DNA of 30,429 bases from Nitrospirota bacterium (GCA_040754455.1 JBFMCP010000008.1:1-30429); one strand, 5' to 3'; numbered from the stretch's first letter, positions 3,698-8,485 are shown. The notes: generated by a model from the letters alone, not told the origin. Numbers and translations are program-made.

Positions 3698-3740
3698 TTT
3701 TGAAAGTTTCAGAAGTTTGTGCGTACATATCTGTGTCGTC

Positions 3741-3780
3741 AGAGGGCCACAAAGACTTTGAGCTTTGTGGTTTTTTTGTT
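3741..3780 (+). promoter_or_regulatory. Terminator-like hairpin in the csp2 5' leader
   Basis: GGCCACAAAG-ACTTTGAG-CTTTGTGGTT followed by TTTTTGTT. Homologous to 204-242. Confidence 0.7.
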
Positions 3781-3819
3781 GTTCTGAACTTTTAATTTTT
3801 TGTAAGGGAGGTACAGGGA

Positions 3820-4020
3820 ATGGCTAACGGAACCGTGAAGTGGTTCAACGAGACAAAGGGCTTCGGCTTCATTACCGGTGAAGACGGCAGCGACGTATTT
3901 GTCCACTACTCATCTATTCAGGGCAACGGCTTCAAAGCCCTTGCAGAGGGCGACAAAGTCAGCTTCGATGTCGAAAAGAGCCCTAAAGGACCCAGGGCAA
4001 TCAACGTTACAAAACTGTAA
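3820..4020 (+). CDS. cspA: Cold-shock domain protein (CspA family), copy 2
   Basis: 66 aa with RNP1/RNP2 motifs; close paralog of 288-488; SD GGGAGG. Confidence 0.97.
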
Positions 4021-6646: not shown

Positions 6647-6817
6647 TCACTTCTCCGGGACCTTCTCTTTTTCCTCCGTGGCTGTTTTTTCTTCTCGGGG
6701 TTCGGGTCTGCATACCGGGCAGTAAGGGTCTCCGAGGTCCAGGAGACAGACATGCCCTCATTCCGGACAGCAGACGCATTTCTCGATCGAGAACCCGCAT
6801 ACCGGACAGCGTTCCAT
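6647..6817 (-). CDS. Small Cys-rich protein with in-frame TGA at codon 20 (candidate selenoprotein, or nonsense pseudogene)
   Basis: Manual translation: MERCPVCGFSIEKCVCCPE[TGA]GHVCLLDLGDPYCPVCRPEPREEKTATEEKEKVPEK*. SD GGAGG 5 nt upstream of ATG 6817. The TGA is at 6758-6760. Not in the ORF track. Confidence 0.75.
6717..6757 (-). promoter_or_regulatory. Candidate bacterial SECIS hairpin
   Basis: Starts immediately after the UGA: lower stem GGGCA/UGCCC, upper stem GUCUCC/GGAGAC, apical loop UGGACCUC beginning 16 nt after the UGA with G at loop position 2. Confidence 0.55.
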
Positions 6818-6849
6818 ACAGTCCTCCCATGAATAGTGCTTTTGTCAAG

Positions 6850-7172
6850 CATAAAATTTCATCAACATATTTTTCTGATCTTCGTTACCATTCTTCTTTG
6901 AGTCCCACAGAGAACCTTCCATTCATCAGGGAATCAGCCATCCTCCCCTTCGGGCTCGCACTCAATGCGGCCCACCTTACTGATGCTGTTGGCACGCCCA
7001 TTCTCCTTGTCGGCCTCTCAGGACCAGGTCTGTTGTACGGGCTATGCCTAACCGTTGTTCCCTTCACAACAGGTTCATCATGTCCAGGACTGCTCCACAC
7101 CTTTTTCCTGACCTAAGCTTTTTCCCCTGAAAGGAAAAAGCCGCCTCCCCTCATGGATGAGGGTCTTAGCCG
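6850..7172 (-). ncRNA. Putative bridge/seekRNA of the IS1111-type element (boundaries approximate)
   Basis: Structured non-coding right end: hairpins 7117-7141 and 7148-7163, closed by CTAAG/CTTAG. It contains target-matching segments at 7086-7092 and 6975-6980. Confidence 0.6.
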
Positions 7173-7173
7173 T

Positions 7174-8196
7174 TCACCTCGTGCTCAGCAGCCGATAATC
7201 ATACTGCCGTCTGTCACGAAGGACGTAAAACATGATCTGTATCAGCGCAAGCCCAACCAGGGCCGTCTTAAACCCCCGTCGCTTTGCTACCTGCTCATGC
7301 CACACCCTTAAAGGTCTGCTCTCTGCACTCTTGCTCCTAAGCACCGCATGCGCCCCCTGTTTGACCACCCCCCTGACCTCGCTACGCTCCTCCCTGGTGA
7401 TATGCCCATACTCCGTCCGCTCTCTGCTGCTCCTCACAGAAGGCACCAATCCGCAGTAGCTGGTCAGTTTCTTTGCACTGCCAAACCTCTTTACGGTATC
7501 TATGGCCGCATAGATCGTCTTGGAGGCTACCTCTCCCACCCCAGGAACACTCTTCAGCAGCTCTATTTCGTTGTTCTTGTATTTGCCGATCACTTCATCC
7601 AACTGCCCACGCTCTCTGAGCAGTTCTTCGATGGATCTCCGGTAGCTCTCTATCACCGGCTTTAAGTGCAGAGGGATATCTTTGCTCTTCTTCAGCTCTT
7701 CAAATATCTCTCCATCACGGAAGGCCTCGGCTTTCAGCTTTACCCCCTCCTGCCTCAATAATCCCCTCAGTTGGTTCATCAGGCTCGTGGCGCTCTTTAC
7801 CAACTGCTGCCGTGCCCTCAACAGGTCTCTTAGCTCTCTGATGTCGCCTTCTGCCATGTGTATCTTCTCCGGTAATCCCTCTATCCTCAGCAACTCCGCC
7901 AATACCTTCGCATCTACTTTATCGGTCTTCCGCTTCGTCTCGGCGATCAGCTTCACTTTGTTGGGATTCACTACATATACCCCTACCCCCATCTTCGTGA
8001 GTAGATCGTATATCCATCGACTGTGCCCTCCGGCCTCTAACGCTACTTCTATAACCTTGTCTTTCCATTTCCTGAGGTATCCCCGGTATCCTTCTTTGTC
8101 CGTCGGGATCTCTTTGCTCTCTACCTTCCTGCCCCTCCGGTCAACCACATACACATAACTGCTCTTGCTTGCTACATCCAATCCCGCATAGTACAT
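7174..8196 (-). CDS. IS110-family DEDD transposase/recombinase
   Basis: N-terminal GLDV, ALEAGG and KTDKVDA (DEDD RuvC-like); C-terminal SVPGVG..F.S.KKL.SYCGLVP...SS; SD GGGGAG. Confidence 0.95.
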   Translation of the reverse strand: MYYAGLDVASKSSYVYVVDRRGRKVESKEIPTDKEGYRGYLRKWKDKVIEVALEAGGHSRWIYDLLTKMGVGVYVVNPNKVKLIAETKRKTDKVDAKVLAELLRIEGLPEKIHMAEGDIRELRDLLRARQQLVKSATSLMNQLRGLLRQEGVKLKAEAFRDGEIFEELKKSKDIPLHLKPVIESYRRSIEELLRERGQLDEVIGKYKNNEIELLKSVPGVGEVASKTIYAAIDTVKRFGSAKKLTSYCGLVPSVRSSRERTEYGHITREERSEVRGVVKQGAHAVLRSKSAESRPLRVWHEQVAKRRGFKTALVGLALIQIMFYVLRDRRQYDYRLLSTR

Positions 8197-8485
8197 TTCG
8201 GCTCCCCTCTCCTCATCGTATTTACTTGACTCAGGGTAGTACTATTCAGGGATGTTGTCAGCCTCTACTGCTATTCATAGTATCTCCTTACCAGGAAATC
8301 CGAAACTCCAAGCATGAAATTCCAGGCGCGCACCTCTAACGGATGAAAGAATTCCAATGCGTAACTAAACTTACTTAAATTGTAGTAGCAAATCGCATAA
8401 AAGAAAATATTCTGCAGTGCCCCCTCCCGCCTTTACTCACGTATGCATCTTTAAAAAGGCAAGTTCTGCGTAGGGCATAGACGGC

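Follow-up and report, generated by a model that had tools for sequence, protein, structure and literature searches.

Which bases in the non-coding end of an IS110-family insertion sequence name the site in which the element sits, and can they be recognized from one copy? The question is raised by an element (hereafter WIN) in the 30,429-nt stretch of Nitrospirota DNA that was analysed here and that we call the window. An initial annotation had taken two short segments of its non-coding end, at 7092-7086 and 6980-6975, for the guides of a bridge RNA or seekRNA. Our reading, to which we give a probability of about 0.85, is that WIN is an IS110-family element of IS1111 layout which encodes a bridge RNA/seekRNA of ~190 nt, with its target guides at 7033-7026 and 7010-7003 and a donor loop that matches the ends of the element. 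The borders, the protein family, the conserved RNA structure and the covariation of the loop strands with the flanks and with the ends were computed here; from the family, we infer that this RNA would be made, would bind the recombinase and would direct recombination. The comparison of sequences suggests that the initial annotation had the concept right and the coordinates wrong.

The element, its relatives and its core

Coordinates are those of the window, and the top strand of the element is the minus strand of the window. The features of the element outside its RNA domain are as follows.

6824-8285, minus strand: whole insertion sequence, including a copy of the AG core at both junctions
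7174-8196, minus strand: recombinase/transposase gene of the IS110 family, 340 aa (Pfam, NCBIfam and PDB homology)
8271-8278: left subterminal inverted repeat, ATGAATAG on the element top strand, separated from the left end by 5 nt
6829-6836: right subterminal inverted repeat, separated from the right end by 3 nt
6843-6848, minus strand: outward TTGACA, a candidate -35 box near the right end, read from the sequence

The recombinase matches PF01548 (1.1e-30; N-terminal, DEDD/RuvC-like) and PF02371 (2.9e-16; C-terminal), reaches 227 bits (cutoff 140) with NF033542, "IS110 family RNA-guided transposase", and is homologous to the PDB transposase chains of IS621 (E 1.5e-09) and ISCro4 (9.8e-09). 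By the sequence of its protein, WIN is a member of the IS110 family. No named relative was found among plasmids: at least 5000 records match, all below 60% identity and annotated only as "IS110 family transposase", and the closest plasmid-borne relatives among the matches listed share 31.7-32.8% identity with the WIN recombinase.

A scan of genome contigs with the WIN recombinase gave 79 loci. Those used below are listed with their identity to the WIN protein and, for elements with both ends, the insertion site written as left flank, AG and right flank.

WIN: GTAAGG-AG-GACTGT
L001, Nitrospirae MAG, 92% (86.5% in DNA over 1487 nt), both ends: ATAAGG-AG-GTTTTT
L002, Nitrospirota MAG, 66%, both ends: ACTTGT-AG-GTGTAC
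L003, Nitrospirota MAG, 64%, both ends: GTTTGT-AG-TTGGAA
L012 and L013, Thermodesulfovibrionales MAGs, 77% and 67%, left part only
L004-L009, L015 and L019, eight copies in one Pirellulaceae MAG, 43-50%: GGGGAG-AG-GGCGTG (L004)
L010, Deltaproteobacteria MAG, 40%, both ends: GCATGG-AG-GTTTCA
L011, Woesearchaeota MAG, 39%, both ends: GAATGG-AG-GGCTTT
L022, Geoglobus sp. MAG, 33%, both ends: AGAATT-AG-TTCGTC

None of the 79 loci is an identical copy of WIN, the nearest being L001, and no second copy was found within the 30-kb window. Two of the distant sets have peculiarities of their own. The Pirellulaceae copies L004-L009 lie inside arrays of a ~34-nt repeat rich in GGGGGGAGAGGGCGTGGG (e.g., L004 4405-4530), and their target is part of that repeat. 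In the archaeal L022 (313-1281), the recombinase gene is split into two ORFs (313-750 and 769-1281) and the left-guide region carries a short tandem duplication.

The borders of WIN were drawn from these relatives. Homology between WIN and L001 spans 8290 to 6814; the flanks of L002, L003, L012 and L013 are unrelated, and the ends AG-ATACTATGAA and TTCATGGG-AG are common to them. Along the element top strand one reads ..CCTGGTAAGG, AG, ATACTATGAATAG across the left junction and ..CTATTCATGGG, AG, GACTGTATGGAAC across the right one (the downstream flank can also be written GACTGTATGG). The body is thus 8283 to 6826, or 1460 bp with one core AG, and its removal leaves the empty site TTCCTGGTAAGG-AG-GACTGTATGGAA, which is the site that the initial annotation had rebuilt. 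We take AG as a 2-nt core because all eight elements with both ends read flank-AG-body-AG-flank with conserved ends; L012 and L013 have AG at their left junctions as well. Judged from the junctions alone, donor and target would share this short core, with no longer duplication of the target.

Non-coding sequence is distributed unevenly in WIN, with 87 nt upstream of the recombinase gene vs 348 nt downstream of it, and the subterminal inverted repeats (8 nt, 100% complementary) fall within the 7-17 bp of the IS1111 type. On these sequence features, the layout of WIN is that of the IS1111 type: a short left end, the recombinase gene and a 348-nt right end. The IS1111-type seekRNA elements described by Siddiquee et al. 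(2024; PMC11187229), among them ISEc11, ISPa11 and ISKpn4, likewise have a long non-coding region downstream of the recombinase gene, subterminal inverted repeats and recombinases of 330-350 aa, and the left extension of WIN would be 7 bp, as described for ISEc11, if AG is counted at the left. The outward TTGACA is conserved in seven of the eight two-ended elements (WIN, L001-L004, L010 and L011) and is absent from the right end of L022. Further inside, the left end of WIN has the inverted repeat a second time (8238-8251 vs 6827-6840; 14 nt, 86% complementary), and a related motif is visible at the same inner place in L001, L002, L012 and L013.

A predicted structured RNA in the non-coding end

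The 348-nt non-coding end does contain the two segments that had been annotated. Read as minus-strand RNA, CAGUCCU at 7092-7086 (segment a) complements AGGACTG of the empty site, GUAAGG at 6980-6975 (segment b) is identical to the left flank, and the two matches abut in the site and together span 13 bp. The weight of this coincidence was estimated from 20000 dinucleotide-preserving shuffles of the non-coding end. The exact word CAGTCCT appeared in 267 of them, GTAAGG in 1757 and both in 21; an abutting or overlapping pair with at least 6 nt each, at least 13 bp across the core and the same arrangement appeared in 283 (1.4%), and a comparable pair in any arrangement in 1396 (7%). The annotated pair is uncommon by chance yet not rare enough to stand alone, a caution that the initial annotation had itself expressed. 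The real non-coding end holds seven different matches of at least 6 nt identical to the 26-bp site. When all of its 8-mers are scored against the site, segments a and b come out best, at 7/8 each; the guides that we propose in their place score, in WIN alone, 7/8 on the right, which is a tie, and 6/8 on the left. Because these scores are so close, the window alone cannot decide between the two pairs of segments, and related elements are needed.

A covariance model was built on the stretch 7050-6929 of WIN together with its counterparts in L001-L003 and was run on 58 of 80 sources, leaving out 22 near-duplicate Paracoccaceae loci (L049-L064, L066-L070 and L073; 27-29% identity). In these 58 sources, 13 matches lie downstream of the gene, including those of the elements with 43%, 40% and 39% identity and one from an archaeon. 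Scores were 133-146 bits for WIN and L001-L003, 37.6 bits for L004-L008, 33.4 bits for L019 and L010, 29.7 bits for L011 and 21.2 bits (E 0.023) for L022. In the alignment to the model, which has nine distinct rows, 94.1% of the cells are paired and 18 of 28 pairs are changed on both sides, counts that are favoured by the fitting of this alignment to the model itself; none of 500 shuffles reaches either value, and controls slid along the sequence are 23-42% paired. The model points to a conserved structured RNA in the non-coding end, with the following parts, all on the minus strand.

6901-7091: predicted bridge RNA or long seekRNA domain, ~190 nt, with nested closing stems and two arms
7091-7086 with 6906-6901: predicted stem P0 (MFE folds)
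7076-7071 with 6917-6912: predicted stem P1 (MFE folds)
7063-7058 with 6933-6928: predicted stem P2 (MFE folds)
6991-7048: predicted target-binding arm, with a stem (7048-7038 with 7000-6991), an internal loop and a small hairpin (7025-7011)
6935-6988: predicted donor-binding arm, with a stem (6988-6982 with 6942-6935), an internal loop and a hairpin (6974-6951)

Both arms have compensatory support in the nine-row alignment: in helix 1, of the target arm, 5/5 pairs are changed on both sides, and in the hairpin of the donor arm (helix 5) 5/9 pairs are so changed with 100% of the cells paired. The closing stems enclose the two arms in the MFE folds of WIN, L001 and L002, and in L003 the outer stem is formed with different letters. 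The target arm is also recovered by centroid folds. Taken singly, the WIN sequence is no stabler than its shuffles (z -0.28 for 6905-7100 and -0.77 for 6850-7172), and the MFE fold of 6850-7172 is without the arms, which the centroids of both stretches show; because z is near that of shuffles and the MFE and centroid folds differ, single-sequence folding is not decisive here. A search of Rfam gave no family at gathering scores over the whole window and, at E up to 10 over 6700-8400, only three weak and unrelated matches. After the stop codon of the recombinase gene and ahead of the RNA domain, there is a perfect 9-bp hairpin, GCUUUUUCC/GGAAAAAGC (7117-7141, minus strand), which is common to WIN and L001 only and is present in the centroid fold of the longer stretch.

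Across the relatives, segments a and b do not follow the insertion sites; a lack of covariation was among the outcomes that the initial annotation had itself named as speaking against its assignment. Segment a reads CAGUCCC in L001, where the right flank is AG-GTTTTT (3/7 matched, as read from the alignment), and it has no alignable counterpart in L002 and L003, in which the conserved stretch begins at 7079. In WIN, its bases 7091-7086 are predicted to pair with 6906-6901, and in the MFE folds of WIN, L001, L002 and L003 the corresponding place pairs just 3' of the RNA. Segment a therefore looks like the 5' strand of an outer closing stem (P0), since the pairing is kept with different letters in four elements. 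Segment b remains GUAAGG in L001 and in L002, the latter with the left flank ACTTGT, and is GCAAGG in L003, with the left flank GTTTGT; it is constant whatever the left flank, it lies within the 5' strand of the donor loop, and its U-to-C change in L003 accompanies a change of the element's left end from TACT to TGCT. The initial annotation had suggested looking at whether both segments are unpaired and face each other: a is predicted to be paired in the outer stem and b to lie in the donor loop, so that they are 105 nt apart in different structural elements and are not opposite each other.

That CAGUCCU and GUAAGG are nevertheless the two target guides of a seekRNA would account for their perfect matches of 7 and 6 nt abutting at the core, for their scarcity in the shuffles and for their rank among the 8-mers, and their order, with the top-strand match on the 5' side, is that of IS1111 seekRNAs. 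Given their behaviour in L001, L002 and L003, we find this assignment exceedingly improbable: the two segments are a chance pair, one from an outer stem and one from the donor loop. What survives of the initial annotation is the proposal that the non-coding end of this IS110-family element encodes a structured RNA whose segments match both strands of the site, so that its specificity can be read, as the comparisons indicate; its placement of the guides does not survive, as it is 7033-7026 and 7010-7003 that covary with the site. The case illustrates that a single sequence can suggest the wrong guide: here the highest-scoring short matches were due to chance, and it took covariation to place the guide strands.

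Predicted target loop and donor loop

The strands of the two internal loops, all on the minus strand, are as follows.

7026-7033: predicted right-target guide ACAGACCU, complementary to top-strand AGGaCTGT (ACAGTCCT; core AG and right flank) at 7/8, with a mismatch at A7029
7003-7010: predicted left-target guide ACAAGGAG, which has the same letters as GTAAGGAG of the top strand (left flank and core AG) at 6/8
6975-6981: 5' strand of the predicted donor loop, AGUAAGG, of which AGUA (6981-6978) complements TACT (8282-8279) in the left end
6943-6950: 3' strand of the predicted donor loop, AAGGGGAG, identical to the right end and core (CATGGG-AG) at 6/8

The two target guides face each other across one internal loop, between the segments that had been annotated. 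The matching stretch of the left guide is AAGGAG (7008-7003), the left flank plus the AG core, and would pair with the bottom strand. The top-strand match is 5' of the bottom-strand match, both pairings include or overlap the core, and the guide strands end accordingly, the 5' strand in CU and the 3' strand in AG. Against the element's own site, the right guide matches 7 of 8 positions in WIN, 8 in L001, 7 in L002, 7 in L003, 5 in L004, 3 in L010, 7 in L011 and 6 in L022, and the left guide, in the same order, 6, 8, 5 (ungapped), 7, 7, 4, 5 and 8. With the core excluded, the cognate sites of the eight elements are matched at 68/96 positions against a permutation mean of 40, and 68 is reached by 7 of the 40320 site-to-element permutations, for guide anchors that were chosen by eye before the test. 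The four close relatives alone match at 39/48 non-core positions, which is the best of their 24 assignments, and where the right guides of WIN and L001 differ (AcAgAC vs AAAAAC), both differing bases agree with the flank of WIN itself. The two loop strands at 7033-7026 and 7010-7003 thus appear, from the sequences compared, to match opposite strands of the target, to overlap on the core and to covary with the site.

The agreement is uneven. The guides of WIN fit their own site at 9/12 non-core positions and the site of L001 equally well (9/12). The right guide of WIN is one base out of register relative to L001-L003, which leaves U7026 with two roles, pairing with the core and closing the hairpin. 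The left guide of L002 needs a one-base bulge, and L010 is a clear miss, its guides matching 3/12 non-core positions. When the window was searched for other target sites with AAGGAGGNCTGT, 13 places matched, all at exactly 2 mismatches, and 7 of 100 shuffles gave at least as many.

Such weak cases, notably the left guides of L010 and L011, could be taken to mean that target choice rests chiefly with the protein or with DNA structure, such as recognition of a Shine-Dalgarno-like GGAGG, and that the loop matches are a by-product of GGAG-rich ends. Four of the eight elements do sit in GGAGG-N4-5-ATG contexts, and the donor end CATGGG-AG resembles left targets such as (T)AAGG-AG and ATGG-AG. The sites of L002, L003, L004 and L022 are not Shine-Dalgarno-like, however, and the loop strands follow them; right guides devoid of GGAG content (AAAAAC, AUACAC and AUCCAA) covary as well, and guidance by RNA has been shown experimentally for the family members described in PMC11187229 and PMC11208160. 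We therefore regard a choice by protein or DNA structure as very unlikely, and retain the reading in which the RNA loops hold the specificity.

The second loop appears to match the donor, that is, the joined ends of the element. Its 5' strand, of which segment b is a part, changes together with the left end: AGUA with TACT, AGCA with TGCT (L003), AGCUU with AAGCT (L004), GAAU with ATTC (L010) and GUUA with TAAC (L022). Over six lineages 24/30 positions agree, and 4 of 720 permutations score as high. The 3' strand reads AAUGGGAG in most elements and is identical to the right end and core at 6-7 of 8 positions in all eight; G6948 of WIN is a U in seven relatives. The 5' strand does not pair with the core, having AGG where UCU would be needed.

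Based on these matches and on the family, a possible course of events can be proposed. WIN would be excised as a circle in which its right and left ends abut, and the outward TTGACA (6848-6843) would form a promoter with left-end bases at the joined ends; the formation of a promoter on joining of the ends is described as a property of the family (PMC11187229). The RNA would be transcribed together with the recombinase message. In its donor loop, the 3' strand would carry right-end AUGGG plus AG while the 5' strand AGUA (6981-6978) would pair with left-end TACT; in its target loop, the 3' strand AAGGAG would pair with the bottom strand, and the two pairings would overlap on the AG core. Once in complex with the recombinase, the RNA would place the circle's joined ends at a target similar to ACAAGG-AG-GTCTGT, and the strands would be exchanged at AG. 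Here, the target would have been the Shine-Dalgarno sequence of a small ORF.

This arrangement combines traits of two described systems. As in the IS1111 seekRNAs of PMC11187229, the segment complementary to the top strand is 5' of the one for the bottom strand, their targets overlap, and natural retargeting occurs by a change of segments with constant stems, which has been described for ISEc11/ISXne4 and is seen here for WIN, L001, L002 and L003. The differences are of size and of content: in the IS1111 set of that study the seekRNAs peak at 82-96 nt and a long form reaches 154 nt, as against ~190 nt for the WIN domain, and WIN has a second loop that matches the element ends, a contrast drawn from the published descriptions. 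As in the IS621 bridge RNA (Durrant et al., 2024; PMC11208160; 8WT6-8WT9), whose recombinase is the homologue noted above, target and donor are served by separate internal loops, each with one strand pairing to the left side (bottom strand) and one to the right side (top strand), and a 2-nt core common to donor and target is within the target-loop pairings. Unlike the IS621 RNA of that description, the WIN RNA is in the right end rather than the left, the order of the guide strands within a loop is reversed, the core is AG rather than CT, the domain is closed by outer stems so that the arms branch from a junction, and the partner of the donor 5' strand is +2 to +5 of the left end instead of the core. 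For many IS1111 orthologues, the same study describes a discontiguous RDG-RD pattern with multi-loop donor binding (PMC11208160).

RNA-guided IS110/IS1111 recombinases are in development as genome-writing tools, and each guide that can be read extends the catalogue. WIN and its relatives add to it a distant clade, with at most ~33% identity to plasmid-borne relatives among the matches listed, with an AG core, a defined RNA architecture, and members in thermophile-associated and archaeal lineages.

Insertion contexts and the state of the WIN copy

Four elements sit within GGAGG, with an ATG following 5-6 nt downstream (window 6815-6830 for WIN; L001 4371-4390; L010 4318-4336; L011 1520-1539), and the other four (L002, L003, L004 and L022) have no ATG within 25 nt. 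The right end of the element, ..GGGAG, followed by the flanking G restores a Shine-Dalgarno-like GGGAGG. The ORF downstream of L010 encodes an encapsulin shell protein (PF19307, 7.2e-93); the one downstream of L001, open for more than 215 aa, matches no Pfam family at E up to 0.01. In WIN, the downstream ORF is a small one.

6650-6817, minus strand: short ORF (56 codons, rich in Cys) with its ATG 6 nt after the right junction; WIN is inserted in its Shine-Dalgarno sequence

This ORF has an in-frame TGA at codon 20 with a predicted hairpin starting right after it, which makes it a candidate small selenoprotein. It matches no Pfam family, and a word-indexed search of proteins of 30-98 aa gave no homologue.

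A precedent may exist in IS900, an IS110-family element of Mycobacterium avium subsp. paratuberculosis, which reportedly inserts at translation initiation signals in one orientation. WIN differs from it in belonging to a different branch of the family and in its host, and Shine-Dalgarno targeting is seen here in four of eight related elements, where it comes with the guide sequences and is no fixed trait. A broader and speculative proposal, which in its full form we consider unlikely, would be that these elements form an uncharacterised IS1111-like clade that branches deeply and extends over Nitrospirota and Planctomycetota, a MAG from Deltaproteobacteria and, in archaea, Woesearchaeota and Geoglobus. 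Its bridge RNA would be closed and of junction type, with a core-skipping donor guide, and several members would aim at Shine-Dalgarno sequences in such a way that the ribosome-binding site of the downstream gene is restored by their right end, ..GGGAG. If this were true, insertions would be nearly harmless and open to read-through from the element. Apart from this proposal, the elements compared hint that some members aim at ribosome-binding sites while preserving them.

Whether the specificity read in WIN is a working one depends on the state of this copy. Its recombinase was aligned with those of six relatives, L022 being left out as its gene carries a stop. D7, E54, D92, D95 and S257, the last in a G-x-x-P-x4-S-G motif, are invariant across the seven sequences and, following the family literature, are the putative catalytic residues; the four acidic ones align with GiDta, iEAtG and KTDtVDA of IS621. 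At other conserved places WIN departs from its relatives: the residue after S257 is R258 in WIN, G in 5/6 relatives and S in L004, residue 270 is E in WIN and G in 6/6 relatives, and a 2-residue gap falls within a conserved ARK (residues about 317-318). The SG residues are required in Piv (PMC11187229). In L001, guides and protein both look undamaged.

It is conceivable, then, that the RNA architecture is real and the WIN copy a decaying relic, the guides of which record a past specificity. Besides the three protein changes, this would fit the mismatches of the WIN guides to their own site at 3/12 non-core positions, where L001 has 12/12 matched, the donor-loop G6948, which is private to WIN, and the single copy within the 30-kb window. 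Conversely, the reading frame is intact over its 340 aa, and the columns aligned with the DEDD residues and S257 are kept. We lean against decay while giving it real weight, and WIN may no longer be active.

Elsewhere in the window, a cold-shock-protein-like gene is present twice, at 195-475 and 3734-4007, together with a conserved hairpin upstream of it. The copies are alike over 189 nt (79% identity) and over 47 nt (85%), and an ORF lies at 3820-4020.
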